Part shown: positions 35,601 through 55,978 of the stretch, piece after piece
How positions within the stretch are numbered: the stretch's first letter is position 1
Layout: each line of letters opens with the position of its first letter
Virus record (IMG/VR): IMGVR_UViG_3300042358_000005
Coordinates: 32,001-96,000 of that record
DNA: 64,000 nt
DNA from: a virus
Taxonomy: Duplodnaviria > Caudoviricetes
Reading direction: 5' to 3' (one strand)
Notes under the pieces: generated by a model
What the model was told of the DNA's origin: nothing
The model's input: the letters and a program-made list of their open reading frames with translations, nothing else
The model's database searches: none
Made by a program: the position numbers and the translations under genes

Positions 35601-38600
35601 GATTTGGATGGGCAATATATGTTGATGTATTAGATTGTGGTGGGGTACCAGTTGGATCTCCATCAGGAAATTGGCAAATGCTACTTACAGGAACTGAAGG
35701 TTCTTCAGGATCTAGTGGTACATCTGGATCTAGTGGTACATCTGGAACTAGTGGTATTAATGGTACTAATGGAAGTTCAGGAACTAGTGGTACAACTGGA
35801 ACATCAGGGTCATCAGGTATCAATATAGGTTCTAGTGCGGTTATTATATTAGGTGCTGGTGTATGTTCTTCTGTAAGAGATGGAGTTGGTAATACTTCTA
35901 CTGGTGCGTTTAGTGCTTCTTTAGGAGGTCAAAATAATAATGCAACTAATAGTTGTGCGACAATAGCTGGTGGATGTACAAATAATGCAACTGGTCAAGT
36001 ATCAACAATTGGTGGTGGTCAAAATAACACTGCTTCTAATTATCAATCAACAGTTGGAGGTGGTAAATCTAACATTGCTTCTGGAGAAAAATCAACAGTT
36101 AGTGGTGGTCAATCTAACACTGCTAATGGTAATTTTGCAACAGTAAGTGGAGGTTTAAGTAATGTAAGTTCTTATGTAGGTACTGTTAGTGGAGGTGTTA
36201 ACAACAATTCTAGTGCTTATTCTTCAACAATTGGGGGTGGTAAACAAAACACTGCTTCTGGAGATACATCAATAATAGCTGGTGGTGGTTGTAATACTGC
36301 TTCTGGTGGTCGTTCAACAATTGGTGGTGGTTATCGAAATGTCGCTTGTAATATTTATTCAACAGTTGCTGGTGGTAATAGTAACTTTGCTTCTGGTAGT
36401 CGTTCATTTATTGGTGGTGGTTTTTCAAATACTGCTTCTAATAGTTATTCAACAATTACTGGTGGTAATGGTAATATTGCTTCTGGTATTCGTGCAACAA
36501 TTGGTGGAGGACAAGAAAATTCTGCTTCTAATTCTTGTTCAACAGTCAGTGGTGGTCTTTTTAACATTGCTTCTGGTTTTAATTCATTTGTAGGTGGTGG
36601 TAAAGGAAATGTTGCTTCTAGTGATTGTTCAACAGTTAGTGGTGGTTATAAAAACTGTGCAACTCAGAATTATTCAACAATTGGAGGTGGTAGATATAAT
36701 TTTATTTCAACTCGTTTGTCAACAATTGGTGGTGGATGTTCTAATAGATTAGCTGGTAATCATTGTTTTGGTACTATCGGTGGTGGATATTGTAATTTTG
36801 TAAAAGGACAATATGGTAGTTATAATAGTAAAGCATCAACTATTAGTGGAGGAAGAAATAATTATACCTGTGGTTCATATATTAGCATTAGTGGTGGATT
36901 ACGAAATTGTGCAACTGGTGCTTGTTCAACTATTGGTGGTGGTAAATGTAATGTTACAAGTTACGCTGGTTCAACAATAAGTGGTGGTTCTTATAATATT
37001 GCTTCTAATAGTTATTCAACAGTTGGAGGAGGATATTGTAACACTGCATCTGGTAATGATTCAATAGTAGGAGGTGGTAATAGTAATACTGCTTCTGCTT
37101 GTAGTTCAACAATTGGTGGTGGTCGTAGCAATACTGCTACTAATTATTTTGCCACAATTGGTGGTGGTCAACAAAACATTGCTTCTGGTCTTTATTCAGC
37201 AGTTGGTGGAGGTCAAGCTAATACTGCTTCTGGTTCTCGTTCAACAATTGGTGGTGGTGTTGCTAACACTGCTTCTGGTTATCGTTCAACAATAGGGGGT
37301 GGTTATAGTAATACTGCTTCTGCTTATCATTCAACAATTGGTGGGGGTAAAACTAATACTGCTTCTGGCATCCGTTCAACAGTTAGTGGTGGATATAGTA
37401 ATATTGCTTATAATTTTAGTTCAACAGTTGGAGGTGGTCAATATAATAATGCTTCTGGTATAGGTTCAACAGTAAGTGGTGGCGGAGTGAATTATTATAA
37501 TTTTAGTTATTATAGTGCTGGTAATAGTGCTTTTGGAAATTCTTCAACAATTGGCGGTGGTCTTTTTAATATTGCTTCTGGATGTAGTTCTTTTATTGGT
37601 GGTGGTTGTAGCAACACTGCTTCTGCTAATAGTTCAACAATAAGTGGTGGTCAAAGCAACACTTCTTCTAGTAATTTTTCAACAGTTGGTGGTGGTGTAA
37701 TTAACACTGCTTCTAATCCTTATTCAACAGTTAGTGGTGGTTTACAAAACACTGCTTCTGGTAATTCTTCAACAGTAGGTGGTGGTAGAAATAATATTGC
37801 ATCTGGTATTCAATCAGCAATTGGTGGGGGTTGTCAAAATACTGCTTCTGCAACTTATTCAACTGTTGGTGGTGGTAAATATAATACTAACAATAGTCAG
37901 TATTCTACAATTTCTGGTGGTTGTGGTAATATAATTCCAAATACACAAAATAATAGAAACACTATTGGTGGTGGAGTTTGTAATGTAATGATAGCTAATA
38001 CAAGTGGTGCTACAATTAGTGGTGGTAGAGCTAATACTATAAGTAGTGGTAGTGGTAGTTGTTATATGACTATTAGTGGTGGTTGTTGTAATACTATTAC
38101 TTCTGGTACTGCATCAACTATTGGAGGTGGGAAATGTAATACTACTTCGGCTTTTAGTGCAACAGTTAGTGGTGGATATAGTAATACTGCTTCTGCTGGT
38201 CGTGCAACAGTTGGAGGTGGTAGTAATAATGTTGCTTCTGTTTATTGGGCAACAGTTGGAGGTGGTAATGCAAACAATGCTTGTGGTCAATCTTCAACAA
38301 TAGGCGGTGGAACTTCTAATATTGCTTCTAGTAATTATTCAATAGTTGGTGGTGGTTATTCTAATGATGCTACTAATTCTTTTGCAATAGTTGGTGGTGG
38401 TAATGCAAACACTGCTTCTGGTAGTCGTTCTACAATAAGTGGTGGTCAATCAAATACTGCTTCTTCTTCTTATTCAACAATAGGAGGTGGTTTAAATAAT
38501 ATTGGTTCTGGTTGTTTCTCAACAATTAGTGGAGGTCAAGGCAATACTGCTTCTGGTACTCTTTCAAATACTGGAGGTGGTTTTTGCAACATTGCTTCTG

Positions 38601-39502
38601 GTAGTCTTTCAACAATTGGTGGTGGTCAATGTAACAGAAATTGTTCTGACTATTCAATAATTGGCGGTGGTGTAAGTAATTGTACAGATTACGGATGTTT
38701 GAATACCATTAGTGGTGGTATGACAAATAGAATGATTCATAATACCAATAGTATTATTGGGGGAGGTCAGAATAACTCAATTTGTGGAAATATTGCTAAT
38801 TCTTCTTATACTCGTGGTAATTCTATTTTGGGAGGTTATAATAACGCTATAAACAATATAAGTTACGCTACGGAATCTCAAAATAATACAATAACTGGCG
38901 GAATATCCAATAGTATATTTGCATATAATTCTGCATATACCTGTTCTAATTTTATTGGTGGTGGTAAGAGTAATGCAATTTGTTCTTCAAGTAGTGATAA
39001 AGCCAGTTATAATTCTATTATAGGTGGTAGAAGTAATAATATAACTGGTTTTTGTAACTCACATATTATTGGTAGTTACCTTTCTGTAACTGCCAATGAC
39101 ACAACATTTGTTCAAGCATTATCAAAAACAAGTGGTACGTTTAGAATTAAGCACCCAGAACCTATAAAAAACAAAACGCATTACTTACAACACTCGTTTG
39201 TTGAATCGCCTACTGCTGGAGATAATATTTATAGATATGTTGTTAAAGTAGTAGATGGTGTTGCTGAAATTGAATTGCCAGAGTATTTCAAATTCCTAAA
39301 TGAAAACACTCAAATTTGGGTAACGCCCAAAGAAGGTTTTGGAATTGCTTATGGAAAAGTAGATGAAAATTTAAAAAAAGTAACTATATTTGCTAACGAG
39401 GATTTAGAATATAACGTTCTTATCATAGGAACAAGAAAAGATAAAGATGCTATTGAAAATTGGAATGGTATTGAAATATTACAAAATAAAATAAATAAAT
39501 AA
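32603..39502 (+). CDS. Long tail fibre/spike: Gly-Thr-Ser collagen-register tracts, globular modules, 14-aa beta-helix repeats and a C-terminal chaperone-like domain
   Basis: 2299 aa; (G/A)-T/S-S/T triplets; STIGGGxxNxASxx repeats; C-terminal KTSGTFRIKHP…LQHSFVESP…IELPEYF. Confidence 0.8.
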   Translation: MSVICAANPCPILLSASCVFYEGPNLICTGINTNETLESALKKINDRLCSGAGADGTSGTSGTSGTSGTSGTSGTSATSGTSGTTGTSGSSGTSGSSGTSGTTGTSGTSATSGTAGTSGVQGDRYRTVSTDCFTLGNSGTLIVDIGLSYTPGQSIVIAYNAFNYQESVVLTYNPFTGDLTFTAPTLVVGAGNYCIWDINLDGATGGDGSSGTSGTSATAGTSGTTGTSGTTGTSGSSGTSGSSGTSGTSGTSGSSGTTGTSGTTGTSGSAGSSGSSGLNGSSGAAIANWFASYSDNGNQPIIAANTPTPVTYNTTEIANGIILDVSQQIRYPHANIYEFGYSLQVEKTGGPSTDIEIWIRKNGNNIVRTDSYLSITADGVIQLPYVSFILELLANDYLEIIFSSTSQYVQLTAKAAKTSPYAAPAAPSVIVNTKQIGVGVGSTSGTSGTSATSGTTGTSGTSATSGTSATSGTAGTSGTSATSGTSGTSGTNGSAGTSGTSGTSGTSGSSGTSGVDGTSGTSGIDGSNGTSGTSGTSGSSGSSSTSGTSGTSGTTGTSGSSGSSGSSGTSGTSGTNGSAGTSGTSATSGTSGTSGTSGTSGTSATSGTSGTSATSGSSGSSGSSATSGTSGYSGDKYATSSTTCYTIQAPPGTGTITVDTGLAYTLGQSIIITYSGDALQHNEAIVTGYDPLTGILNFQVTGQTGSGLYCSWFVNLDGATGGDGSNGTSGSSGSSATSGTSGTTGTSGTTGTSGSSGTTGTSGTTGTSGTSGTSGTTGSSGSSGIDGTSGTTGTSGTSATNGTGGTSGTSGSSGSSSTSGTSGSSSTSGSSGSSGTNGTGGTSGSSGSSGSSATSGTSGTSAINGTDGTSGTSGSSGTAGTSGSTGTSGTSGSSGSSATSGTSGTTGTSGSSGINGSNGTSGTSGTSGASGLGYTNPVAGPTSGTWVTDCSLVGTNISFYISGSELGAYTVGNFVNLIDTTSGSTFYYYGRITLIQFAGGFGWAIYVDVLDCGGVPVGSPSGNWQMLLTGTEGSSGSSGTSGSSGTSGTSGINGTNGSSGTSGTTGTSGSSGINIGSSAVIILGAGVCSSVRDGVGNTSTGAFSASLGGQNNNATNSCATIAGGCTNNATGQVSTIGGGQNNTASNYQSTVGGGKSNIASGEKSTVSGGQSNTANGNFATVSGGLSNVSSYVGTVSGGVNNNSSAYSSTIGGGKQNTASGDTSIIAGGGCNTASGGRSTIGGGYRNVACNIYSTVAGGNSNFASGSRSFIGGGFSNTASNSYSTITGGNGNIASGIRATIGGGQENSASNSCSTVSGGLFNIASGFNSFVGGGKGNVASSDCSTVSGGYKNCATQNYSTIGGGRYNFISTRLSTIGGGCSNRLAGNHCFGTIGGGYCNFVKGQYGSYNSKASTISGGRNNYTCGSYISISGGLRNCATGACSTIGGGKCNVTSYAGSTISGGSYNIASNSYSTVGGGYCNTASGNDSIVGGGNSNTASACSSTIGGGRSNTATNYFATIGGGQQNIASGLYSAVGGGQANTASGSRSTIGGGVANTASGYRSTIGGGYSNTASAYHSTIGGGKTNTASGIRSTVSGGYSNIAYNFSSTVGGGQYNNASGIGSTVSGGGVNYYNFSYYSAGNSAFGNSSTIGGGLFNIASGCSSFIGGGCSNTASANSSTISGGQSNTSSSNFSTVGGGVINTASNPYSTVSGGLQNTASGNSSTVGGGRNNIASGIQSAIGGGCQNTASATYSTVGGGKYNTNNSQYSTISGGCGNIIPNTQNNRNTIGGGVCNVMIANTSGATISGGRANTISSGSGSCYMTISGGCCNTITSGTASTIGGGKCNTTSAFSATVSGGYSNTASAGRATVGGGSNNVASVYWATVGGGNANNACGQSSTIGGGTSNIASSNYSIVGGGYSNDATNSFAIVGGGNANTASGSRSTISGGQSNTASSSYSTIGGGLNNIGSGCFSTISGGQGNTASGTLSNTGGGFCNIASGSLSTIGGGQCNRNCSDYSIIGGGVSNCTDYGCLNTISGGMTNRMIHNTNSIIGGGQNNSICGNIANSSYTRGNSILGGYNNAINNISYATESQNNTITGGISNSIFAYNSAYTCSNFIGGGKSNAICSSSSDKASYNSIIGGRSNNITGFCNSHIIGSYLSVTANDTTFVQALSKTSGTFRIKHPEPIKNKTHYLQHSFVESPTAGDNIYRYVVKVVDGVAEIELPEYFKFLNENTQIWVTPKEGFGIAYGKVDENLKKVTIFANEDLEYNVLIIGTRKDKDAIENWNGIEILQNKINK
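32768..35820 (+). repeat. Five coding tracts of 9-nt Gly-Thr/Ser-Ser/Thr triplet repeats separated by globular modules
   Basis: Tracts at about 32768-32967, 33223-33453, 33923-34503, 34773-35398 and 35690-35820; synonymous codons are scrambled. Confidence 0.9.
35888..39060 (+). repeat. Coding tandem repeat with a ~42-nt (14-aa) unit, roughly 70 copies
   Basis: Recurrent tcaacaattggtggtggt…aatactgcttct; protein unit STIGGG-x-x-N-T-A-S-x-x. Confidence 0.9.
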
Positions 39503-39507
39503 ATAAA

Positions 39508-39834
39508 ATGGAAAATTTCACAATTCACATCTTCGGTTACGGAGAAACACAAATCAATTCAAAAGATTTGTCAGTAAAAGTATCAACTGATACATTAACA
39601 ACAGTAACGCCTTTAGTGGCTGGAATATTTGCTAAAAAACCAGCAGATAATCCAACTGTAATTACAGACTTTCACGCTATTAACCTATTTGGTTATAACG
39701 ATGTTCGTTGGACTGCAAAAGATAGCTTTAACGTAAAAGATGATGCTGACTTAAAACCACTTATCGATGCTTTAATTGCTGAATTGCAAAAAGCAAAAGA
39801 CACAACTACTACCACAACTACAATATTGGTATAG
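39508..39834 (+). CDS. Hypothetical protein with a poly-Thr C-tail
   Basis: 108 aa; ends DTTTTTTTILV. Confidence 0.7.
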   Translation: MENFTIHIFGYGETQINSKDLSVKVSTDTLTTVTPLVAGIFAKKPADNPTVITDFHAINLFGYNDVRWTAKDSFNVKDDADLKPLIDALIAELQKAKDTTTTTTTILV

Positions 39835-39918: not shown

Positions 39919-40740
39919 ATGAAGAAAAGAATTTTATTTAACTCCTCTCTTCCTAGAGCAGGATCAACTCTTCTGCAAAATATTATTGCAGATAACCCAG
40001 ACTTTCATTGTACACCTACATCAGGATTCTTAGATCTTATATTAGGTGCAAAGCAAAGTTATAATAACTCATCAGAAGTAAAAGCACAAGATGCTGAACT
40101 AATGAAGAATGCTTTTGTAGGGTTTTGTCATAATGCTATGGATGGATATTTTAATGCTCTAACAGATAAACCTATTGTCTTAGATAAGAATAGAGGTTGG
40201 GGAATACATATTAATCTAGCTAGTGAGTTCATGGTGTCTCCTAAAGTGGTATGTATGATTAGAGATGTAAGAGCTGTATATTCTTCTATGGAGAAAAACT
40301 TTCGTAAGAATCCTACACAAGAGAATCATGTTCAAAATCCTAATCAATTAGTAGGTACTACTCTTCAAAAGAGAATTAACATATGGGCTGATGGACCACC
40401 AGTAGGTATATCTATGGATAGACTAAAAGATGTATTTGATCAGGGAATAGATAAGAAGATATTATTTATTCGTTATGAAGATTTAATGGACTTTCCTGAA
40501 CAAGAGATGAGACGCTTCTATGAGTATATGGAACTTCCATATTATGAAGGACACAACTTTGAAACTGTTACACAGCATACACATGAAAATGATGCTATAC
40601 ATGGAATATATGGTGATCATAAACTAAGAACAAAGTTTGAAAGAAAGCCTGATGATTTTGAAGAAATCTTAGGATTTGAAATATGTCAATCAATTAAAAA
40701 CACTTATCCTTGGTTCTTTACCAAATTTGGATACGTATAA
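39919..40740 (+). CDS. PAPS-dependent sulfotransferase
   Basis: 5'-PSB loop SLPRAGSTLLQNI, DKNR, 3'-PB RDVRAVYSS, RYEDL. Confidence 0.85.
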   Translation: MKKRILFNSSLPRAGSTLLQNIIADNPDFHCTPTSGFLDLILGAKQSYNNSSEVKAQDAELMKNAFVGFCHNAMDGYFNALTDKPIVLDKNRGWGIHINLASEFMVSPKVVCMIRDVRAVYSSMEKNFRKNPTQENHVQNPNQLVGTTLQKRINIWADGPPVGISMDRLKDVFDQGIDKKILFIRYEDLMDFPEQEMRRFYEYMELPYYEGHNFETVTQHTHENDAIHGIYGDHKLRTKFERKPDDFEEILGFEICQSIKNTYPWFFTKFGYV

Positions 40741-40750
40741 ATCAACCAAT

Positions 40751-41620
40751 ATGAATATAATATTTGATATATCAGGAGGCTTAGGAAAGAATGTTCTTTC
40801 TACAGCTGTATTAAAAGCTATTAAGACTAAACATCCTAAAGCAAACGTAATTGTTCTTACATCTTATCCAGATGTGTTTATTGGTAATCCAAATGTAAAC
40901 AAGGTGATAGTTCATGGAACCACATTAGGTCTTTATAAAGATTACATAATGGGTAAGGACACAAAGATTTTTATTACAGATCCTTATACATGCTCTGATT
41001 ACTTAACAGAATCAAAACATCTAATTGAAATATGGTGTAAACTATGTGAGGTGCCATATAATAATGAATTACCTGAGCTTTTTATATCTAAAACAGAAAT
41101 AGAATACTTTGCTCCATTCTATAAATTAGATAAACCTATTCTTGCTATACAACCTAATGGTGGTCCTCAAGATCAACCATTAAAATATAGTTGGACAAGA
41201 GACATTCCTTCTCCAGTAATTAATGATGTAATACAACATTACAAAAAGAAATATACAATTGTACACATTAAACGTGATGATCAACCAATCTACGATGATA
41301 CAGTAGGAGCTCTTGATTCATTTAGAAGTATAGCTGTTCTATTATCATTATCAGAAAGAAGACTTCTTATTGATTCATCAGCTATGCATATTGCTATAGC
41401 TCTAGGACTTCCAAGTGTTGTATGTTGGATAGGAACAAATTCAAAGGTGTTTGGATATGAAATGAATACTAATATAGATGCTAATGCTCCAGACAAAGAA
41501 TTAAACTTAGATCATCCATATTTACAAAGACTTCCATTGTTTGAAGATATCTCTAGATGTCCATATACAGAACTAGGAAGTATATTCAATAGCGAAGACA
41601 TAATTAAAGCATTGAAATAA
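40751..41620 (+). CDS. GT9 (ADP-heptose transferase-like, GT-B fold) glycosyltransferase
   Basis: ATG 40751 preferred; GGLGKNV…VFIGNPNV…IDSSAMHIAIALGLPSVV. Confidence 0.75.
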   Translation: MNIIFDISGGLGKNVLSTAVLKAIKTKHPKANVIVLTSYPDVFIGNPNVNKVIVHGTTLGLYKDYIMGKDTKIFITDPYTCSDYLTESKHLIEIWCKLCEVPYNNELPELFISKTEIEYFAPFYKLDKPILAIQPNGGPQDQPLKYSWTRDIPSPVINDVIQHYKKKYTIVHIKRDDQPIYDDTVGALDSFRSIAVLLSLSERRLLIDSSAMHIAIALGLPSVVCWIGTNSKVFGYEMNTNIDANAPDKELNLDHPYLQRLPLFEDISRCPYTELGSIFNSEDIIKALK

Positions 41621-42060
41621 TGGCAGTATATTGGTTTACAGGACAGCCTTCACATGGTAAAACAGTTTTGGCTAAATTGCTAAAAGAAGAACTACAGAAA
41701 TACGATAGAGTTTTTCATATAGATGGTGATGATCTTAGAGCTCTTACATTAAACAAAGACTTCTCTGAACAAGGAAGAATAGATAATGTCAAAGGTGCAC
41801 AAAAAATAGCACATTATTTACATAATAAAGATTATACAGTGGTAGTTTCACTCATTGCTCCATATAGATGGCAGAGAGAAGAACTAAAAACTATGCTTGG
41901 TGCAGATCTTGTAGAACTATATGTTCATACAACAGAACCAAGAGAAAGAGATCATTTTAGTGTAAAAGATTATGAAGCTCCCTTAGAGAACTTTATAGAT
42001 GTAGACACTACAGATGATACACCAGAAGAATCATTTGCTAAAATTTTAAAACTAATATAA
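41620..42060 (+). CDS. cysC: Adenylyl-sulfate (APS) kinase
   Basis: WFTGQPSHGKT P-loop, IDGDDLR, DFSEQGRIDNV, YEAP. Confidence 0.85.
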   Translation: MAVYWFTGQPSHGKTVLAKLLKEELQKYDRVFHIDGDDLRALTLNKDFSEQGRIDNVKGAQKIAHYLHNKDYTVVVSLIAPYRWQREELKTMLGADLVELYVHTTEPRERDHFSVKDYEAPLENFIDVDTTDDTPEESFAKILKLI

Positions 42061-42491
42061 TGGGATGGAGTAAAAAAGTGCATGTAGAATCTTCTATGCA
42101 ACCAAAAGATTCACAATATGCAATGTTTGTAGGAAGATGGCAACCTTTACATGAAGGTCATGTAAAACTTTTTCAACAAGCAGTATTAGAGGGTAAAAAT
42201 CTTTTAATATGTGTAAGAGATGGAGAGGTTAATGATAAAAACCCTTATACGTCAAAACAAGTAAAAAAAGCAATAAAGGGCATGAGTAAAAATTGGTGGA
42301 CAGAGGATATTTTACCTTTAATAGATAAATTAAAACCAAAAGTAAAAGTAATAATAATACCTGATATTTGCTCGGTTGAATTTGGAAGAGGTGTTGGTTA
42401 TGATATAATAGAGCATATACCGCCTACAGAGATAGCAGAGATATCAGCTACAAAGGTTAGAGAACAAATGCGTAAAGATGGTGAGTTATGA
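42060..42491 (+). CDS. HxGH-class (cytidylyltransferase-like) nucleotidyltransferase, candidate sulfate adenylyltransferase
   Basis: GRWQPLHEGH, GRGVGY, ISATKVR; TAATG-coupled to cysC. Confidence 0.7.
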   Translation: MGWSKKVHVESSMQPKDSQYAMFVGRWQPLHEGHVKLFQQAVLEGKNLLICVRDGEVNDKNPYTSKQVKKAIKGMSKNWWTEDILPLIDKLKPKVKVIIIPDICSVEFGRGVGYDIIEHIPPTEIAEISATKVREQMRKDGEL

Positions 42492-42697: not shown

Positions 42698-42726
42698 AAA
42701 AAACCCTCTATATGAGGGTTTTTATT
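42696..42726. terminator. Bidirectional intrinsic terminator between convergent genes
   Basis: AAAAACCCTC-TATAT-GAGGGTTTTT. Confidence 0.75.
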
Positions 42727-45700
42727 TGGTCTATCACCATTTGTGGTGTTATACTCTTCTGACATTCGAACTGTCTCTCTGTACCTTCATGCACTGGACA
42801 CCAATTATAATTTCCTTTATCAAACTTATATTGTGGATCATTCCAACATCCATGACACACACTTGTATTCACTGGTCTTAAACATTCAAACTCGTGATGC
42901 TTATCAGTGAAGTTAGAGATCATTATCACTTCTTTACCAAGGCCCCAAGCTAACCAGCTAAGCCCACTAGATAGTCCTATAAAGAACTTGCTTTCATCAA
43001 TAACACGCATAGTGTTAGTCATTGAGGTGTCAAGTAATCCTTGACAGTTGTCAAATGGATTCTTTTCTAATGATGTATTAATCACTTTATATCCTTGCTC
43101 ATGCAAGTAGTTAATCACCTCTTGCCAAGCTTCTCTTGTCCAGAACTTACATCCTGCTGTACTATTAGTTGCAATAGTTATATACATACCTTGCTCATGT
43201 GATTTTTTATATGCAAGTCTTGGTTTGATTTCTTTATAAGGAAGACCTAGAATATTTGTAGCTGTCTGCTGTAATGGTATAGTGTTAGGAAGAACAGGTT
43301 CTTTGTTCTCATTATAGAACCAACCAATTTTGTACATAGCATATATATTATTGACAGCTGTTCCTGGAGCTACAAACTCTAGCATTGGATATTCTTTTTC
43401 AAACAAGAAGTTTTTGAATGTACTAACAATCACTTCACAGTTGTGTAAACATCTAAACTCTTCTACATATGGTATCCAAGCTATTGTATCTCCTAAAGAA
43501 GAACTATCAAAAGCTATGTACACTCTTCTATTCTCTAGCTGTACGAACTTATCGTATACTTTCTCTCCATCTTTATACACAACGGTTCTCCACTTAGTAT
43601 AATACTCTCTAGCAAGTTTTATCCAGTGGTTACATTTGATTACATCGCTATGAACTAATTGCTCACCATCATAAAACTCTACACGAAAGTCACTAGTAGA
43701 TGTACCAGTTATCTCTAAGAATGGTTGTCCAACAAAGTTTTGTGTTATATTATAATCTTTTATCTCATTTTTGTGTGGAATAACAGACATTACATTTTTA
43801 TACAGGTTTGCATGAATTTTTCCGAAAACTTCAGACGTATTATCTGTAGGAACATCATATTTCATTAGTAGTCCCAGTATTGGAGAGTTTAAATCTACAC
43901 TCTCTGCTATATAATTAGTATACATATCTTTATATTGTGGAAGATTTTTAGCTATTATAGGTAGGCCATAACTTACAGCTTCTTTAAGTACAATAGGATT
44001 ACATTCCCATGTGCTGTTAAACATAAACACATCAGCAGCTAACATAAAATGATGAATATCATTTCGTTCTCCCCATATCTTTACATTAAAAGGTAGATCT
44101 TTCATAAGAGGTTCCCAGTAGTCTTTGAAGTTACCAGCTTGGTTACCTATGAAGTGAAACATCACCTTAGGATATTTACGAGCAATAGCTAATCCTTCAG
44201 CTTGATTCTTACCAGGAGTCCAAAGTCCTACATTTATAACATGTCTACCACCAAGGCTCATACCTAAAAGTTCTTTATACTGTCTCTTTAATGTCTTAGA
44301 TACTGGTTCTTTGTCTATAGGATATTCAATCACTTCTTTATATCCATCAAGACTGGCAAATGTATCTACATGATAGGGAGTACAGAATGCATATGCATCT
44401 GGTGTAAACATCTTAGTCTCTGGTACAAAAGATACATCATGACATGTTTCTACTATTCTATACTTTCTACTAGGAGAATATAGTTTAGTGATCATCTCTC
44501 TATCCATTCTCTCAGACATTTCATCTATATGGATAACATCTGGTTGCCATCCATCTATTATATCAAACAGTTTCATTTTATCTTCCCATAGTGTATGGAA
44601 GTGTGGATCTACAATATCCATGATTTGATTTCTTTGTACAACATAATCAATACCATGACATTGATATTCTACAACAAAAATCTCTATATCTGTATTAGCT
44701 TGTAATGCCTCTATTCTTTTAAGAAGAAACTGAGGCATACCACCTGTAGATAGATGAGGTGCAAGGAACATCACTCTCATAGGTTTAGACATCTTAGACA
44801 TCATTTTAGACATTGCTATAGGATCTTTCTCTCCATGTAAGAAGAATAAGTCTTGCTCACTAACTGGTAACTTAAACCATGATTCTATATACTTGCCCCA
44901 ATTGTCTTCTTCATATATCTTATCTAACTTATCAAGGCCAGCATTAGTATATATATAAGGAAGACCTTCTAAGAATCTATGTTTCCATAATAATACATTC
45001 ACTATTGTCTCTTCGTGATAAGGAGCATAATATTGAGGATTCTTTAACACCTCTGGGTGATTACACATCCAACTCCATTCATCTAAAAATGGTATACTGT
45101 TATGACCAGCTACAAAGTAACCAGTTTGTCTATACTTATCTCTAATGTTTTGATGTACACCAAACAACTGGCATGCTGGATATTCTAATGTCTTAACTAG
45201 TTCAGTGCTTCCTCTTCCATTAATAAATAGATAGTCATATATACCCTCTGTGAAATACGGAAATTCCGAATTTATAGGATGATAGTTGAATATTCTATCT
45301 ACATACTTAGTAGCTATAGAATCAGAATCTACATAACATACTCTCTTAGCAAAGTTCTCAAGAGCATGTTTAACTACAAGAGGTCTTTGTATTAATAGAT
45401 TGTATATTCTAGAATCAGTTCTATCTATATAAGTGTTCTTAGGTAAGTCTTCAATATCAGATTGCCAATATATAGTCTTTGCTCCAGGAACCTCACTGTG
45501 ACAATCTAACATGTATACTAAAACAGGAATCTTACTCATCTTGTTAAGACTTTCTACAGCAGCACATACAACACTGTAATAAGATGCATTTGCATATAAT
45601 ACGTACATTTTCTCCTCTTTTATACGTGTATGCGTATAATAGCCATAATATTGATTTCTATATATACAACTAAGTTCAGGATATCTTTCACCCATTATAG

Positions 45701-46121
45701 GATGTGTAAGGTCTGGTTGGTGATGAGTTTCATGTATATTCCCCTCATGTTCTCCTTGTTCCATTTCATATGGAATAGCCACCATACATTCTTTAGTGGA
45801 TACAATGTTTCTGATTAACTTTACAGCATCATCTGTAGGAATATGTTCTAACACATCTCCCATGATTATAAAGTCATAATCACTAGTATCAAATGTGGTG
45901 ATATCTCCTACATAAACATTATCATATTTAGCTCTAAGTCCATACTTTTCTATGTACGGTTCATAGATTTCTACAGCATCAATTCTATATCCTAATGAAC
46001 GTAATAATTCTGAATAAGTCCCTATTCCAGGGCCTACATCTAGTATTCTTTTACTAGTTGGAACGTTTTGAATGAACCATTCTTTCACTTCTTCTTTGAA
46101 GTAGGTAAAACTGTAAGGCAT
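42708..46121 (-). CDS. Multidomain enzyme: class I SAM methyltransferase + DxD glycosyltransferase-like domain + GT4 + TibC/Aah-like O-heptosyltransferase domain
   Basis: ILDVGPGIG…GDVLEH; CYVDSD; HLSTGGMPQ…KNQ…ECNPIVLKEA; SLGDTIAW…FIGLSSGLSWLAW…CHGCWND…WCP…CQKSIT. Confidence 0.85.
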   Translation of the reverse strand: MPYSFTYFKEEVKEWFIQNVPTSKRILDVGPGIGTYSELLRSLGYRIDAVEIYEPYIEKYGLRAKYDNVYVGDITTFDTSDYDFIIMGDVLEHIPTDDAVKLIRNIVSTKECMVAIPYEMEQGEHEGNIHETHHQPDLTHPIMGERYPELSCIYRNQYYGYYTHTRIKEEKMYVLYANASYYSVVCAAVESLNKMSKIPVLVYMLDCHSEVPGAKTIYWQSDIEDLPKNTYIDRTDSRIYNLLIQRPLVVKHALENFAKRVCYVDSDSIATKYVDRIFNYHPINSEFPYFTEGIYDYLFINGRGSTELVKTLEYPACQLFGVHQNIRDKYRQTGYFVAGHNSIPFLDEWSWMCNHPEVLKNPQYYAPYHEETIVNVLLWKHRFLEGLPYIYTNAGLDKLDKIYEEDNWGKYIESWFKLPVSEQDLFFLHGEKDPIAMSKMMSKMSKPMRVMFLAPHLSTGGMPQFLLKRIEALQANTDIEIFVVEYQCHGIDYVVQRNQIMDIVDPHFHTLWEDKMKLFDIIDGWQPDVIHIDEMSERMDREMITKLYSPSRKYRIVETCHDVSFVPETKMFTPDAYAFCTPYHVDTFASLDGYKEVIEYPIDKEPVSKTLKRQYKELLGMSLGGRHVINVGLWTPGKNQAEGLAIARKYPKVMFHFIGNQAGNFKDYWEPLMKDLPFNVKIWGERNDIHHFMLAADVFMFNSTWECNPIVLKEAVSYGLPIIAKNLPQYKDMYTNYIAESVDLNSPILGLLMKYDVPTDNTSEVFGKIHANLYKNVMSVIPHKNEIKDYNITQNFVGQPFLEITGTSTSDFRVEFYDGEQLVHSDVIKCNHWIKLAREYYTKWRTVVYKDGEKVYDKFVQLENRRVYIAFDSSSLGDTIAWIPYVEEFRCLHNCEVIVSTFKNFLFEKEYPMLEFVAPGTAVNNIYAMYKIGWFYNENKEPVLPNTIPLQQTATNILGLPYKEIKPRLAYKKSHEQGMYITIATNSTAGCKFWTREAWQEVINYLHEQGYKVINTSLEKNPFDNCQGLLDTSMTNTMRVIDESKFFIGLSSGLSWLAWGLGKEVIMISNFTDKHHEFECLRPVNTSVCHGCWNDPQYKFDKGNYNWCPVHEGTERQFECQKSITPQMVIDQIKTLI

Positions 46122-48230: not shown

Positions 48231-48304
48231 TCTAGTTAGACTTGCTCTAACTATTTTTGTTATTTTATTTTGGTGAAAATCAGATACTAATGGTGAAAAA
48301 AACT

Positions 48305-48312
48305 TATTTTTG
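48305..48312 (+). promoter_or_regulatory. -7 box TATTTTTG for the poly-Thr peptide/glycosyltransferase unit
   Basis: TAnnTTTG match, preceded by two TGGTGAAAA repeats. Confidence 0.5.
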
Positions 48313-48338
48313 TATATTAATTAATAAAATTTAAAATC

Positions 48339-48506
48339 ATGGCAATACCATCAAGAGGAATAGGCTGGAGTACTACAGATAACCTATTATGGCAGATATC
48401 TAAGCAATTAGAACGTCTTATTAGTGTTACAGGTGCTGGAAACACGTACACTACAACTACTACTACTACTGTAGCACCTACTACCACTACCACTACAACA
48501 GTGTAA
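48339..48506 (+). CDS. Poly-Thr-tailed micro-protein (55 aa; not in ORF track)
   Basis: MAIPSRGIGWSTTDNLLWQISKQLERLISVTGAGNTYTTTTTTTVAPTTTTTTTV. Confidence 0.8.
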   Translation: MAIPSRGIGWSTTDNLLWQISKQLERLISVTGAGNTYTTTTTTTVAPTTTTTTTV

Positions 48507-48532
48507 AGAATTAAAACAAAACCAACTACATT

Positions 48533-49549
48533 ATGAAAGATTTAAAATTTATCCAGGCTTGTCCTAGTGATATTTATTACACATGGCAAGTGCACATGTG
48601 GTTAGAGAGCTTAAGAGAGATAGGTCATTCTGACAAAGCTATATCAGTAATCTTCACTCCTAAAGGGAGAGAGAATAAAGACAAGTGGAAACAGATAGAA
48701 GATCTATATCCAGAAGCAGAGTTTCATTACTATGCTGATGAGGATAATTTAAATCGATTGTTAGGAATTTATATTCCTGTACTTAGACCATATGTTCTTT
48801 GGAAACATTTTAAAGCACATCCAGAACTAAGTGAAAAAGCTATCTTCTATTGTGACTCTGATATTCTTTTCATGAAGGATTTCAATCTAGATAAGTTCTT
48901 AGAAGATGATGTTAACTACTTATCTGATACAAACAGCTATATCAATGCTAAATATTTTGATAGCAAGGTGCACCAAGTGTTACCAGAGAAGCTAGAAGAA
49001 TATAAGAATAGGGATATCCTTGCAGAGATTGCAAGTGTGGTAGGAATAAGTAGAGAAGTGTGCGAAGCTAATAATGATCATTCAGGAGGAGCTCAATATC
49101 TATTAAAAAATGTAGATGGTGACTTCTGGAGTAAGGTGATGAATGATTGTATTCTTATAAGAAGTTATTTACAAACTGTGAATAGAGAATTCTTTAAAGA
49201 TGAGAACTCAGGGTTTCAAAGTTGGTGTGCAGATATGTGGGCTGTCTTATGGAACATCTGGTTAAGAGATCAAGAAACAAAAGTGGTGCCTGAATTAGCA
49301 TTTGCTTGGGCTACAGATCCTCTTATTAAATTAGATACACATACAATCTTTCATAATGCAGGAATAGTTTCTGAGACAGGAAATGGATACCCAGCTTTCT
49401 ACAAAGGAAAGTATCACATGGGAACTGATCCAACAAAAGATCCTAACTTAGATATGATTCTTAATGATGAGAATTCAAAAAAATATTGCACATGGTTCTA
49501 TGCAAATAAATTAAATGAACTAAAACAAAAACATAACCTAAACTATTAA
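48533..49549 (+). CDS. GT-A fold glycosyltransferase resembling GT95/GT96 protein O-glycosyltransferases
   Basis: YYTWQ, YIPVLRPYVL, FYCDSDILF (DxD), WCADMWA, IFH in the order seen in plant HPAT/SGT enzymes; assignment by eye. Confidence 0.65.
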   Translation: MKDLKFIQACPSDIYYTWQVHMWLESLREIGHSDKAISVIFTPKGRENKDKWKQIEDLYPEAEFHYYADEDNLNRLLGIYIPVLRPYVLWKHFKAHPELSEKAIFYCDSDILFMKDFNLDKFLEDDVNYLSDTNSYINAKYFDSKVHQVLPEKLEEYKNRDILAEIASVVGISREVCEANNDHSGGAQYLLKNVDGDFWSKVMNDCILIRSYLQTVNREFFKDENSGFQSWCADMWAVLWNIWLRDQETKVVPELAFAWATDPLIKLDTHTIFHNAGIVSETGNGYPAFYKGKYHMGTDPTKDPNLDMILNDENSKKYCTWFYANKLNELKQKHNLNY

Positions 49550-49565
49550 CCCTAAATTTTAAACA

Positions 49566-49772
49566 ATGGGAAGCATTAATTCAAGACCTTTAAAGGCTTT
49601 TGTTAGATTCGATGGATCTGGCAGAATAGTTGCAGGAAGTTTGATTCTAAGAAAGAACAAACCTAAAGTTGGTAAATGGAAAGAGATTCCAGCATATGAG
49701 TGCTGTAATCCTACAACCACTTCAACCACCACTGCTGTATTAACAACAACAACAACCACCTCACCTAGATAA
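49566..49772 (+). CDS. Poly-Thr-tailed micro-protein, paralogue 1
   Basis: LKAFVRFDGSGRIV…KPKVGKWKEI…ECCNPTTTSTTTAVLTTTTTTSPR. Confidence 0.8.
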   Translation: MGSINSRPLKAFVRFDGSGRIVAGSLILRKNKPKVGKWKEIPAYECCNPTTTSTTTAVLTTTTTTSPR

Positions 49773-49774
49773 TC

Positions 49775-49996
49775 ATGGCAAGAAGTAATAACAATAATAA
49801 GCTTAAAGCTTTTGTACGTTTTGATGGTTCAGGACGTGTAGTATCAAGTAGTTTAATTGTACAAGCATTTAAACCGAAGGTTGGTAATTGGAAAGAAATA
49901 GATGCTAAGGAATGTTGTAATTATGTTCCAACAACAACAACTACCACTACAGTAGCACCAACAACTACAACCACCACTACAGTTACTCCAGGGTAA
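49775..49996 (+). CDS. Poly-Thr-tailed micro-protein, paralogue 2
   Basis: LKAFVRFDGSGRVV…KPKVGNWKEI…ECCNYVPTTTTTTTVAPTTTTTTTVTPG. Confidence 0.8.
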   Translation: MARSNNNNKLKAFVRFDGSGRVVSSSLIVQAFKPKVGNWKEIDAKECCNYVPTTTTTTTVAPTTTTTTTVTPG

Positions 49997-50013: not shown

Positions 50014-50430
50014 ATGGCACTAAAATCACTATTTCCAGATGATATGATTAGCAAAGGGCCTAGTAGTGAGCTTTCATTAGATAGCATTGCTGCTAAGCTT
50101 ACTTACTTTCATGAGCAACTACATTTGTTGCACTGGCAGACAAGCTCTTACGCAGAGCATATGGCACTAGGAGGATTGTACGATTATGTACATGATTTCA
50201 AAGATGGGTTGGTTGAGAAGATTATGGGATATACAGGTAAAAGACCTGGAGCTTATAAGATAGAACCTCTTGGAGCAGCTAATGCTTCTTCTGTTGTTTC
50301 TGAGCTAATGAGCTTTGCTTCATCTCTAAAAGCATATGGTGAGAAGAATAGCTTCCACGATGTATGTAATCTTGCAGACTCTCTATCAGGAGAAGCAGCT
50401 AAAACTAAATATCTTTTAACATTGTCATAA
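50014..50430 (+). CDS. Ferritin/Dps-like four-helix protein (DUF5856-like)
   Basis: HLLHWQTSSYAEHMALGGLYD…DGLVEKIMG…TKYLLTL. Confidence 0.7.
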   Translation: MALKSLFPDDMISKGPSSELSLDSIAAKLTYFHEQLHLLHWQTSSYAEHMALGGLYDYVHDFKDGLVEKIMGYTGKRPGAYKIEPLGAANASSVVSELMSFASSLKAYGEKNSFHDVCNLADSLSGEAAKTKYLLTLS

Positions 50431-50715: not shown

Positions 50716-51948
50716 ATGCCAACATTTATAAAACCAGGATTCTGGAAAGAAACATGCAATCCTTGTAATGGTTACAAAGGATGGTTAAACCTTGATCAAT
50801 TCTCTGGTCAATCAGGAACAAATGGAACAAGTGGTACTAGCGGTGTATCAGGTGAACAGGGTGTTCAAGGAATTCAAGGGATACAGGGAATACAGGGAAT
50901 ACAAGGAGTTACAGGTTCTAGTGGTACTAATGGTACATCAGGACTAACTGGAGACAGATATCAAACTACATCTACAACAACTTTTGAATTAGGAGTGAGT
51001 ACAACTCTTACTGTTGAAACAGGATTATCTTATTCAGTAGCACAAGATGTAATTATATCATTTAATGTTAATAATCATCAAGTGTGTTCTGTAGTTAGTT
51101 ATGATCCTATAGTAGGGACATTGGTTATTGGACCTCCTATATCAGTAACTGGATCAGGTACATATAGTGTATGGGGAGTAAATCTAAATGGTGCAGCTGG
51201 AGGAGATGGTACAAACGGAACCTCTGGTACAAGTGGTCTTTCAGGATCTAATGGAACCAGTGGAACTAGTGGTATACAAGGAATACAAGGTGTACAAGGA
51301 ATTCAAGGAATTCAAGGAGTTAATGGTACCAATGGTACTTCTGGCACTAGTGGATTAACTGGAACTAACGGAACATCTGGTATCAATGGTAGCAATGGTA
51401 CAAGTGGATCTTCAGGAGTGAGTAATGCTACAGCATCTTACGGTTTATTTGCTCAAACAGCTGATAGCACACCTGTAACTGCCACTGCAGTAGAAACAAC
51501 AGTAATAGGATCAGGAGTTGGTACATTATCTGTTCCTGCAAATGCATTCTCTATTGGAGATTCTTTTCTTTGTTCTTTAGATGGTTTAATTTCTTGTACA
51601 AGTGCATCAACTGTACGCATTCGAGTAAAAACAGTAGGAGGAACACTTCTTGCAGATACTGGAATAATTGATTTGGCTGCTGCAACTAATAAAGCTTGGA
51701 TAATGAACTTATATTTTACAGTAAGAACATTAGGAATAGCTACTGTTGCATCAATTTCATCTGGAGGATTGTTCTCTTATATTAGAAATGGGGGAACTCA
51801 ATTTGAAGGATATAATTTAAGTACAGTTAATAGCACTACATTTGATACCACTATTAACAATACATTAGTAATCACAGCACAGTGGGATACAGCTGATGTA
51901 GACAATTCAATATTGTCACGAAACTTCACACTAACAAAAGTCTATTAA
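50716..51948 (+). CDS. Collagen-like fibre protein (GIQ and GTS/GTN triplets) with a module shared with the long fibre
   Basis: 410 aa; GIQGIQ and GTSGTN tracts; GDRY…NLNGAAGGDG module; beta-rich C-terminal domain. Confidence 0.8.
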   Translation: MPTFIKPGFWKETCNPCNGYKGWLNLDQFSGQSGTNGTSGTSGVSGEQGVQGIQGIQGIQGIQGVTGSSGTNGTSGLTGDRYQTTSTTTFELGVSTTLTVETGLSYSVAQDVIISFNVNNHQVCSVVSYDPIVGTLVIGPPISVTGSGTYSVWGVNLNGAAGGDGTNGTSGTSGLSGSNGTSGTSGIQGIQGVQGIQGIQGVNGTNGTSGTSGLTGTNGTSGINGSNGTSGSSGVSNATASYGLFAQTADSTPVTATAVETTVIGSGVGTLSVPANAFSIGDSFLCSLDGLISCTSASTVRIRVKTVGGTLLADTGIIDLAAATNKAWIMNLYFTVRTLGIATVASISSGGLFSYIRNGGTQFEGYNLSTVNSTTFDTTINNTLVITAQWDTADVDNSILSRNFTLTKVY

Positions 51949-54269: not shown

Positions 54270-54297
54270 AGAAAGCCCCTTAATTGGGGCTTTTTTT
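54268..54297. terminator. Bidirectional terminator at the strand switch
   Basis: AAAGAAAGCCCC-TTAATT-GGGGCTTTTTTT. Confidence 0.85.
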
Positions 54298-54946
54298 ATC
54301 TAACTGTGTATTGATTTGAGTAAACATTACCTTCTAATAACTTGTATCTTGTACCAAACTTATGTAATAGATATGGAAGACTGAGTTGATCTTGAACAGA
54401 CCATATGCAATTGTGATAGAACCACTCTTTCATTAAATTGTATTGTCTGTTAGCTATAACATTCTTAGAATATATGAATGTTCCACATTCAAAAAGAACA
54501 TTATCTATCCAGTGTACATTTTTAGAATAGTGCTCTACTTGCTCTTTCATTCTTTCTCCATCATACCTATCAATAAGATATTGATTATCTGTAGCAATTA
54601 AACTAATGACATGGTCTAGCTCTTGTTTAACAGAACTTCTTCCTGAATGTTTAAAGAAACATGCATCTGTGTCAATACATACATCTACCATTCTCTCTAT
54701 AGCTGATTCATCTGATATTGAAAAACCAGCATCCATCCATATGTAATAGTCATAACTTGGATGATCTTCCCAAACTATCATTTTAGGTATTTTACCACGT
54801 AATCTGGGAAACATAGCTTTTTGTCTTGGAGATTCTATTTGATCATCTATTCTATTAAATACTATTTCATACTTATCAGATTTTTGATCTACCCATCTAG
54901 AATATAATCCACTTCCAAATGAAGCTGTTGTTACTAATACTCTCAT
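54296..54946 (-). CDS. DUF616 (TOD1/MUCI70)-like glycosyltransferase
   Basis: KIPK…YIWMDAG…FKHSGRSSVKQE…ECG…QDQLSLPY. Confidence 0.65.
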   Translation of the reverse strand: MRVLVTTASFGSGLYSRWVDQKSDKYEIVFNRIDDQIESPRQKAMFPRLRGKIPKMIVWEDHPSYDYYIWMDAGFSISDESAIERMVDVCIDTDACFFKHSGRSSVKQELDHVISLIATDNQYLIDRYDGERMKEQVEHYSKNVHWIDNVLFECGTFIYSKNVIANRQYNLMKEWFYHNCIWSVQDQLSLPYLLHKFGTRYKLLEGNVYSNQYTVR

Positions 54947-55695
54947 TGTTTATTTATAAAATCTTTTAACATTTGCGCATAGTCTTTGTTCCAATGAGGA
55001 TTCAAATGAACATCTCCTGTAGGGATAAGATTTTTTTGTCTTAAGCTTTCTATATATTCACTATGTCTTTGTATTATGTTAGGCTTATCTGCAGTGTCTG
55101 TACCTTGTCCAGATTGATGATAACCACGTCCACCCCACATATAGAACCAAGAACATTCTTCATTAGGAGGAGCAGCTAAAACCATTCCTTGTCTTCCTAG
55201 ATTCTGTAGAGATATAGCTAATGTCATATCTCCTCCAGCATTCTGTATTGGACTTTTACCTATTTTTTCCCAAGCTTTCTTGCTATATACAATACCTGAA
55301 TTACCAAGGCCCATTATTTTGGTTATATTAGGTTCATTATAGAACACACCTCTTTCCCAATGTAATATATTAGCATCAGGTCTCCAAAACTTAGCTATGT
55401 TAGAGAGGTGATTGCTTAGTGCTACATCATCATCATCCCATACAGCAATAAGATCTCCAGAACAATGCTCTATAGCATAGTTTTCTTTATCCCCAATTGT
55501 AGGGAATGTTTCATCCATATTATAAATTTTTATTTCTGGATGATCATATACTAACTTTTGTAGAGGGTAGTCATTAACTATAATAAGTTCTTTCTTACCT
55601 GGATACTCTTGTAGGAGGAAACTTTGTATAGCTTCCTCCAGAGTATCTACTCTTCCATAAGTGATGCATTTGCAACTAATGAAAGGATATTCCAT
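54943..55695 (-). CDS. GT2-family glycosyltransferase
   Basis: ATG 55695 preferred; CITYGR…LEEAIQSFLLQEY…ELIIVND…AVWDDDD. Confidence 0.8.
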   Translation of the reverse strand: MEYPFISCKCITYGRVDTLEEAIQSFLLQEYPGKKELIIVNDYPLQKLVYDHPEIKIYNMDETFPTIGDKENYAIEHCSGDLIAVWDDDDVALSNHLSNIAKFWRPDANILHWERGVFYNEPNITKIMGLGNSGIVYSKKAWEKIGKSPIQNAGGDMTLAISLQNLGRQGMVLAAPPNEECSWFYMWGGRGYHQSGQGTDTADKPNIIQRHSEYIESLRQKNLIPTGDVHLNPHWNKDYAQMLKDFINKQ

Positions 55696-55696
55696 A

Positions 55697-55978
55697 TTAC
55701 CAGATTTGAATAATGTCAAATGGAGAAACTAACAATACAGTTTCTTCTTCTGATAGAGGGATTAATGGAGCTTTTGATAAAGCTGCTGGATCTACAAGAA
55801 CAAAATCACCCACCTTCACTTCCATGTTAGCTGTACCAACACTATGAACTTTAAGTTTGTTCATCTTCTTCAACATTTCTTTCTCTAAAGATTCTTTTGT
55901 ATTCTCATCTACGATAAGTTTGCTTTCTTCTTTCTTTGGTATCTCTAAGTAGATACGGTTTCCTAATAATCTTGCCAT
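55697..55978 (-). CDS. groES: GroES-like co-chaperonin
   Basis: LLGNRIYL…VHSVG…VKVGDFVLV…DII. Confidence 0.65.
   Translation of the reverse strand: MARLLGNRIYLEIPKKEESKLIVDENTKESLEKEMLKKMNKLKVHSVGTANMEVKVGDFVLVDPAALSKAPLIPLSEEETVLLVSPFDIIQIW

Follow-up and report, generated by a model that had tools for sequence, protein, structure and literature searches.

A predicted phage glycosyltransferase and the threonine-rich protein tails encoded beside it

The 64,000-nucleotide stretch analysed here, called the window, covers bases 32001-96000 of IMGVR_UViG_3300042358_000005, a 118,934-bp phage record of IMG/VR that CheckV rates as complete. Between positions 48305 and 49996 it carries a cassette made up of one gene for a predicted glycosyltransferase (GT) and three genes for micro-proteins that end in runs of threonine. 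The enzyme probably glycosylates threonine-rich tracts of phage proteins, a reading that sequence comparison leads us to hold with a probability of about 0.7. It is carried by the fold of the enzyme, by an invariant DxD motif, histidine and lysine, by the conservation of the genes, and by the coupling of the enzyme gene to threonine tails across distant phage lineages.

The cassette and its enzyme

The four open reading frames (ORFs) described in the initial annotation, one of 55 amino acids (aa), one of 338 aa and two tandem paralogues, are all present on the + strand. The first (48339-48506) encodes a 55-aa micro-protein in which a 37-aa N-terminal segment is followed by the tail T7-VAP-T7-V, where T7 stands for seven threonines in a row (tail DNA 48450-48503). 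After it comes the enzyme gene (48533-49549), then the gene of a 68-aa micro-protein (49566-49772), whose N-domain runs to the residues ECCN and gives way to P-TTTSTTT-AVL-T6-SPR (tail DNA 49710-49769). In its 73-aa paralogue (49775-49996) the N-domain also ends in ECCN, and the tail is YVP-T7-VAP-T7-VTPG (tail DNA 49928-49993).

The enzyme is a GT-A fold glycosyltransferase, an assignment in which we have high confidence and which comes from structural modelling. Its AlphaFold2 model forms one globular alpha/beta domain (pLDDT 96.9, pTM 0.93), and a Foldseek search with it returns 270 matches at E <= 0.001, headed by GT-A enzymes. The nearest solved structures, ranked by their VIA-align Z, are glycogenin (14.3), the Skp1 alpha-galactosyltransferase (14.1), LgtC (13.9), the catalytic domain of UGGT (13.3), WbbM (13.1), GlyE (12.6), LARGE1 (12.4) and the viral capsid-protein glycosylating enzyme A64R of PBCV-1 (11.0). 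Identity to the best of these neighbours is only 9-13%, and the relation is therefore one of fold and not of family membership. Every one of the top PDB neighbours is a retaining GT-A enzyme, either of the GT8 type or close to it, and because of this the phage enzyme is, by analogy, probably retaining as well, making an alpha linkage. The first strand of the model spans residues 4-11, an N-terminal hydrophobic segment is not evident in the sequence, and the model is read as that of a soluble cytoplasmic protein.

At the level of sequence, the enzyme matches phrog_4417, a family of unknown function (E 1.8e-55, with residues 4-320 aligned to positions 1-286 of the 293 in the profile), and its homologues form 2676 clusters in a set of 5.8 billion proteins. 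Pfam (E <= 1) and NCBIfam scans of the 338 residues gave no family. There is no match to the Pfam model Glyco_transf_8 (GT8), and the likeness to GT8 is found at the fold level only; searches of PDB chains with the sequence and with a 61-member profile found nothing meaningful. An alignment of 61 diverse relatives (30-50% identity) has Y80, D108, D110, Y136, Q229, F257, H274 and K291 invariant and A276 and G277 nearly so. The DxD motif D108-S109-D110 (codons at 48854-48862, + strand) sits after the strand formed by residues 103-107 in the model. H274 (codon at 49352-49354, + strand) lies within the invariant segment HNAG...K291, which resembles the H-x-x-G...K motif of GT8, and this residue is by analogy a candidate metal-binding histidine. 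The motifs first noted in this protein are borne out by the sequence: YYTWQ at 15-19, YIPVLRP at 80-86, D108-S-D110, WCADMWA at 231-237 and H274.

The Thr runs are far beyond chance. Threonine makes up 7.2% of the residues in the genome's long ORFs (36.8 k residues), a frequency at which about 4e-4 runs of seven would be expected; 17 runs of at least seven are observed, spread over eight of the ten ORFs that have runs of at least four. The codons within the runs are mixed (ACT/ACA/ACC), and selection therefore acts on the protein and not on a DNA repeat.

The 68-aa and 73-aa micro-proteins are 66% identical. Their 49-aa N-domain is found in 173 protein clusters at 70-100% identity, with variable tails, and in the family alignment C47, C48 and N49, which close the ECCN before the tail, are invariant. 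At their C-termini the relatives carry a Thr tail only, a Thr linker with a Cys-rich module, an acidic tail free of Thr runs, or nothing. Because some relatives swap the Thr tail for an acidic one, the N-domain can be regarded as a common adapter for differing C-terminal pieces. The acidic-tail relatives (rows P0316, P0399, P0416 and P0417 of the alignment) read ILLEDGG..LLQEDNGEILL in place of the threonines. As for the 55-aa ORF, upstream ORFs of 44-57 aa with a terminal Thr run recur in many related loci, and its LERLI..VT segment is common to several of them. Since the N-domain is conserved in 173 clusters and Thr-ending ORFs recur upstream, the micro-ORFs are, on comparative grounds, real genes. 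The AlphaFold2 model of the 73-aa protein and its N-domain is of moderate confidence (pLDDT 72.5). Prediction of a complex of the enzyme, the 73-aa protein and Mn gave a score of 0.01 against a mark of 0.32, which bears neither way on binding.

Coupling to threonine tails and clues to a possible initiating role

Related contigs in IMG/VR number about 300, each roughly 110-120 kb long. Of 80 related loci of this clade, 77 encode one or more runs of seven threonines no more than 3 kb away from the enzyme gene. All of these runs lie on the enzyme's strand; the opposite strand has none over the roughly half a megabase that the loci span. By hand count a Thr-tailed ORF of at most 100 aa directly flanks the enzyme in about 58 of 79. 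Megablast of the cassette region against isolated phages gave no match. The best enzyme homologue in an isolated phage belongs to Chryseobacterium phage MA9V-3 (34.5% identity), and further homologues are encoded by the bacteria Sphingobacterium, Pedobacter and Chitinophaga; because of these occurrences, the host is likely a member of the Bacteroidota.

The coupling extends to isolated phages. Twelve lineages that carry an enzyme homologue of 23-35% identity were checked, and in 12 of 12 a protein with a Thr-rich tail, whether capsid, tail or small protein, adjoins the enzyme gene. In Enterococcus phage phiFL1A the tails are on the capsid-module protein gp45 and on the major tail protein, while Enterococcus phage VPE25 has a Thr-tailed major tail protein and a Thr ORF that overlaps the end of a putative capsid gene. 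The capsid/protease protein and the major structural protein of Lactococcus phage 1706 each end in about ten threonines followed by HHD. Thr-tailed proteins are also found in Lactococcus phage bIL285 (major tail protein), Lactobacillus phage iLp84 (a 125-aa protein and the major tail protein), Lactobacillus phage Semele (a 116-aa protein annotated as major tail protein), Staphylococcus phage DH5 (a tail protein, with a further Thr ORF) and Arcanobacterium phage TPWB06 (a tail protein, with an overlapping Thr ORF), and two of them stand upstream of the enzyme in MA9V-3. Lactobacillus phages SAC12B and LP65 and Clostridium phage phiCTP1 have a T7 run nowhere in their genomes, yet the gene directly upstream of the enzyme ends in Thr-rich repeats: TTV[KA]P in SAC12B, TTTETQTQTQ in LP65 and T5-NAPI-T6 in phiCTP1. 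The pairing occurs in varied genome positions, either after a capsid gene, after a tail gene or in a replication-side island.

As paired controls, six tail-protein orthologues were taken from phages that gave no match to the enzyme profile; three of them correspond to the tail protein of phiFL1A (52-57% identity) and three to that of bIL285 (46-55%). A Thr tail is found in none of the six, and a T7 run in none of the five control genomes scanned. All six enzyme-free orthologues being without the tail, tag and enzyme have thus been gained or lost together in two independent lineages. The synteny across related phages that the initial annotation had proposed as a check holds, both in the clade and in the distant lineages, and the comparative genomics, with its paired gain and loss, argues strongly for the idea of an enzyme-plus-substrate cassette.

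Some of these loci have an unusual layout. In VPE25, a stop-to-stop frame of 52 codons with several T7-T8 runs and no start codon (L088:2725-2883) shares 28 nt, in the -1 frame, with the end of the gene that precedes the GT; this 410-aa gene, annotated only as hypothetical, probably encodes the capsid protein. The arrangement looks like a programmed frameshift adding a Thr tail to a fraction of the subunits. In TPWB06 a Thr-rich ORF (L089:2672-2926) overlaps the major tail protein gene by about 40-85 nt, and it may be another extension of the frameshift type. In DH5 the Thr-rich ORF (L087:2555-2926) comes about 90 nt after the major tail protein gene. In both TPWB06 and DH5, the major tail protein itself ends in a short Thr tail.

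The enzyme had also been proposed to catalyse the initiating step of a wider glycosylation system, and this idea draws support from five small Firmicutes phages that carry the module. Genes of the Pfam GT2 or GT4 families were not detected in them, and the phrog_4417-type enzyme is the only GT recognised there. If the tails of these phages are glycosylated by a phage enzyme, it follows that the first bond has to be made by this family. Larger proteins combine the enzyme domain with GT2, GT6, GT11, GT25, GT32, methyltransferase, or radical SAM and SPASM domains. These fusions fit an initiating, peptide-directed module that would be joined to elongating or peptide-modifying partners. Those with radical SAM and SPASM are several metagenomic proteins of 658-683 aa (P0279-P0283, P0290 and P0302); SPASM enzymes typically modify peptides.

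Bacterial homologues of 505-666 aa cluster with a peptidase-C39 protein in Chitinophaga jiangningensis (L098:2666-9997), a Pedobacter (L100:713-8085) and Sphingobacterium deserti (L101:2215-7733). The C39 protein is a C39/ATP-binding cassette (ABC) exporter in Chitinophaga and a C39-VKOR-thioredoxin fusion in Pedobacter and Sphingobacterium. Further GTs follow the homologue in the Chitinophaga and Pedobacter clusters, which also contain a precursor with a double-glycine leader, in Pedobacter a Cys-rich peptide of 76 aa; the NCBIfam leader matches of these precursors are below threshold. Because its bacterial homologues sit in peptide-export clusters, the gene context suggests that the enzyme family acts on ribosomal peptides or proteins. 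These clusters possibly make glycosylated peptides resembling the ribosomally synthesized and post-translationally modified peptides (RiPPs).

Proposed glycosylation of threonine tracts and its alternatives

A mechanism can be proposed in which a soluble cytoplasmic GT-A enzyme, Mn/Mg-dependent and probably retaining, would bind an extended Thr run. The recognised runs would typically be T5-T9, often flanked by Pro, Ala or Val. Before virion assembly, the enzyme would move the first sugar from a nucleotide-sugar donor (a UDP-sugar) to the Thr hydroxyls. In this phage, the sugar is likely to be accepted by the three micro-proteins that flank the enzyme, each pictured as an N-terminal anchor domain with a Thr stalk, together with at least seven other proteins of the genome in which Thr runs of at least four residues form linkers or tails. 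Elongation and methylation of the glycan, and possibly its sulfation, would then fall to other GTs, a methyltransferase and the sulfotransferase/APS kinase pair. Incorporated in the virion or attached to its surface, the products would form a hydrated layer like that of mucins, which may serve as a shield or in adhesion.

Two of the other candidate acceptors lie on the + strand of the window. A 108-aa protein ending in T7-ILV (39508-39834) is encoded directly after a 2299-aa collagen-repeat protein, and a 512-aa virion-type protein (5269-6807), whose N-terminus matches PHROG virion structural proteins, has Thr linkers in its interior and T7-IP at its C-terminus. The structural module immediately before the window encodes five Thr-tagged proteins, four of which are Cys-rich multi-module proteins with T7 linkers. 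These four are consecutive (genome 22323-28467, L083:7323-13467), and their modules are joined by T5-T8 linkers, giving a beads-on-a-string look; one of them has nine Thr runs in 735 aa. A Thr-tailed protein of 388 aa (genome 20389-21555) was considered as the major capsid protein and rejected, the PHROGs assigning the major head protein to a 520-aa ORF at genome 16751-18313, which is without a Thr tail.

Enzymes that could process the glycan further are also encoded in the window, and the phage has at least four GT domains in addition to the cassette enzyme. A gene scan gives, in a row on the + strand, three candidates for glycan modification: a sulfotransferase (39919-40740), an APS kinase (41620-42060) and a nucleotidyltransferase-like gene (42060-42491), the row spanning 39919-42491. 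A supply of 3'-phosphoadenosine-5'-phosphosulfate (PAPS) encoded by the phage would point to sulfated products. On the - strand, a 1137-aa protein (42708-46121) combines a methyltransferase domain with GT4-type and GT9 (heptosyltransferase-type) domains and is a candidate elongating or modifying enzyme; the same strand carries a GT-like gene resembling TOD1/MUCI70 (54296-54946) and a GT2 gene (54943-55719). Collagen proteins flank this glycan gene region: the 2299-aa protein, with ten collagen-repeat stretches (32603-39502), and a 410-aa collagen-like tail-fibre protein (50716-51948). Directly after the cassette comes a 138-aa DUF5856 protein (50014-50430), which keeps this position in most relatives and matches phrog_858, annotated as a starvation-inducible transcriptional regulator.

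Ahead of the cassette, the promoter originally proposed has a counterpart in TATTTTTG (48305-48312, + strand), which fits TAnnTTTG, the consensus of the -7 promoter element in Bacteroidota, and stands 27 nt upstream of the ATG that opens the 55-aa ORF; the pattern recurs at 48252-48259. As a promoter it is only putative, for the pattern is barely enriched in the window (112 observed, 88.6 expected), and a sigma-70 promoter scan found fewer sites than in shuffled sequences.

Several points weigh against glycosylation of the Thr tracts by this enzyme. The linkage is a co-occurrence in genomes, and genes that are neighbours in the structural module of a phage are often inherited together. Thr-rich linkers can also work without any modification. 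The catalytic assignment of the predicted enzyme rests on fold and motifs, the curated GT models giving no significant match. Finally, other candidate protein GTs are present, such as the GT9-type domain of the 1137-aa protein, and one of them could be the true initiator.

Among the alternatives, the one that survives best concerns the destination of the micro-proteins. These could be something other than virion decorations. They might be glycopeptides or decoys that stay free, factors in assembly, or what is left of a cassette system whose conserved N-domain normally bears a Cys-rich display module. The N-domain relatives with a Thr linker and Cys-rich module, with an acidic tail or with nothing after the domain would suit this alternative, as would its model of only moderate confidence, and scans of the micro-proteins against structural-protein families (Pfam, NCBIfam and PHROG) gave no match. 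Yet the strong conservation of the N-domain beside variable tails fits an attachment function, and tagged proteins in other phages are annotated as capsid or tail proteins. We therefore consider this alternative unlikely, though deserving of real weight. We infer that the micro-proteins may decorate the capsid or tail.

It is improbable that the enzyme modifies the Thr-tailed proteins in a role other than that of priming threonine. It would then elongate a glycan begun by another enzyme, for example by the GT9/heptosyltransferase-type domain, or it would S- or N-glycosylate the Cys-Cys-Asn motif in a glycocin-like manner. Such a role would find room among the further GT domains of the phage, and the invariance of C47, C48 and N49 speaks for the second version, as do the Cys-rich, double-glycine-leader peptides and thiol-redox proteins next to the bacterial homologues. 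However, the Thr tails of the Firmicutes and Actinobacteria phages are without Cys and without a CCN motif, and a GT2 or GT4 starter was not detected in the five small phages.

Finally, the Thr runs could be flexible linkers or stalks left unmodified or modified by the host, with a GT directed at a non-protein target (for instance a polysaccharide of the host envelope, teichoic acid, DNA or a small molecule) in a neighbourhood that reflects variable structural-module islands. In favour of this, the cassette lies in a hypervariable island whose small ORFs differ from one related locus to the next, the GT8-type neighbours LgtC and WbbM act on glycans, and fusions of the enzyme domain to GTs that elongate glycans are frequent. 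The alternative is nevertheless very improbable, for the coupling holds in all 12 distant lineages at differing genome positions, tag and enzyme are absent together in the six paired controls, the bacterial homologues sit in peptide-export clusters, and no known DNA glycosyltransferase is among the structural matches listed.

Relation to known systems and significance

Glycosylation of threonine tracts by the phrog_4417-type enzyme would have its closest parallel in the mycobacteriophages, in which O-glycosylation of virions by phage-encoded GTs has been reported (Freeman et al., 2023, Cell Host Microbe 31:1216, cited in PMC11256854). According to PMC11256854, the major capsid proteins of Che8 and Rita are glycosylated by phage-encoded cytoplasmic GTs, and a glycan shield results. 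The two systems are alike in that a phage GT goes together with capsid or tail subunits extended at the C-terminus by Ser/Thr-rich sequence, as seen here in the annotated capsid and major tail proteins of the relatives; in this genome the tags are on micro-proteins and structural-module proteins. Corndog and Myrna are also said to belong to the mycobacteriophage system, in which tail-tube subunits are reportedly modified too, with the sites at the C-termini. In contrast, the predicted module described here has a separate and unannotated enzyme family (phrog_4417) and a homopolymeric Thr tag; it occurs in phages infecting Bacillota, Actinomycetota (Arcanobacterium) and hosts of the Bacteroidota type, and small stand-alone proteins carry the tag as well. 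The initial annotation knew of no such system in phages, a statement that goes too far: nothing on the enzyme family or on poly-Thr tags was found in the library searched, but virion glycosylation as such is already known in phages, if only from the mycobacteriophages.

The GT8-type enzymes glycogenin, LgtC and GlyE are among the best structural neighbours, with Z of 12.6-14.3 over 210-240 residues, and they share the DxD motif and a late His...Lys with the phage enzyme. They differ from it in sequence (9-13% identity, and Glyco_transf_8 does not match) and in length, the phage enzyme having about 80 residues more. Both glycogenin and GlyE work on proteins, or along them, in the cytoplasm, and the serine-rich-repeat pathway glycosylates Ser-rich, low-complexity tracts before export. 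In that pathway, which serves a pneumococcal serine-rich-repeat adhesin, GlyE elongates, whereas the phage enzyme is proposed to initiate. A64R of chlorovirus PBCV-1 (Z 11.0) is likewise a virus-encoded soluble GT-A enzyme acting on a virion protein in the cytoplasm, but it comes from a eukaryotic virus, belongs to a different GT family and has no Thr tag; the glycans of PBCV-1 are of an atypical N-linked kind. The glycocin-type RiPP GTs, such as SunS, occur with C39-peptidase ABC exporters, and the likeness lies in the peptidase-C39 proteins beside the bacterial homologues of the three Bacteroidota genomes, two of which also have the double-glycine-leader precursors. Known glycocin GTs are GT2-family enzymes. 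Unlike glycocins, the phage acceptors lack a leader and undergo no export.

A kinship with the plant families GT95 and GT96 had been claimed at the outset, on the basis of an order of motifs similar to that of hydroxyproline O-arabinosyltransferase (HPAT, GT95) and peptidyl-serine alpha-galactosyltransferase (SGT1, GT96). Both enzymes are credited with priming runs of hydroxy-amino acids in low-complexity proteins. By language-model features (ESM Atlas), HPAT is the nearest named family: its Pfam model PF23452 is carried by 10-58% of the members in 22 of the 30 nearest named clusters (scores 0.96-0.97), and DUF7164 is carried by six of the 30. However, PF23452, whose gathering score is 23.9 bits, did not match the window protein (hmmscan at E <= 1, six-frame genome search at E <= 10). 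It matches two of the 61 relatives at E 0.012, none of the homologues in five isolated phages and none of ten distant representatives, and it was not found in a search of 4 + 401 Bacteroidota genomes. In the Foldseek comparison with solved structures, the best neighbours were GT8-type, and GT95/96 structures were absent from the PDB matches found. The kinship is thus plausible but unproven, and by the curated threshold the enzyme is not a member. HPAT also differs in having a type II membrane anchor, a Golgi location and a hydroxyproline acceptor, whereas an N-terminal hydrophobic segment is not evident in the phage enzyme; the acceptor of HPAT and SGT1 is hydroxyproline or serine, and that proposed here is threonine.

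A wider view is tentative, and we put it somewhat short of an even chance. In it, tag and transferase would form a portable module in which any phage protein with a short Thr run, at its C-terminus or in a linker, is a substrate of this single soluble enzyme. The module would have spread over phages of at least three bacterial phyla, with bacterial cousins that glycosylate exported ribosomal peptides; it would be a prokaryotic and viral sister of plant GT95/96, and mucin-like coats would be common in dairy, gut and aquatic phages.

If the Thr tags are glycosylated, many phages carry glycan coats that have not been looked for, among them dairy, enterococcal and staphylococcal phages that are well studied and abundant aquatic ones. 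Immune recognition, stability, adherence to mucus or surfaces, and host interactions might all be changed, with a bearing on phage therapy and on phage control in dairy fermentation. The module would also offer a compact, genetically encoded tag-plus-enzyme pair for the cytoplasmic O-glycosylation of recombinant proteins in bacteria. A function for the enzyme would name a large unannotated family of 2676 homologue clusters, and it may point to an evolutionary link with plant cell-wall protein glycosylation and with glycosylated bacterial peptides.

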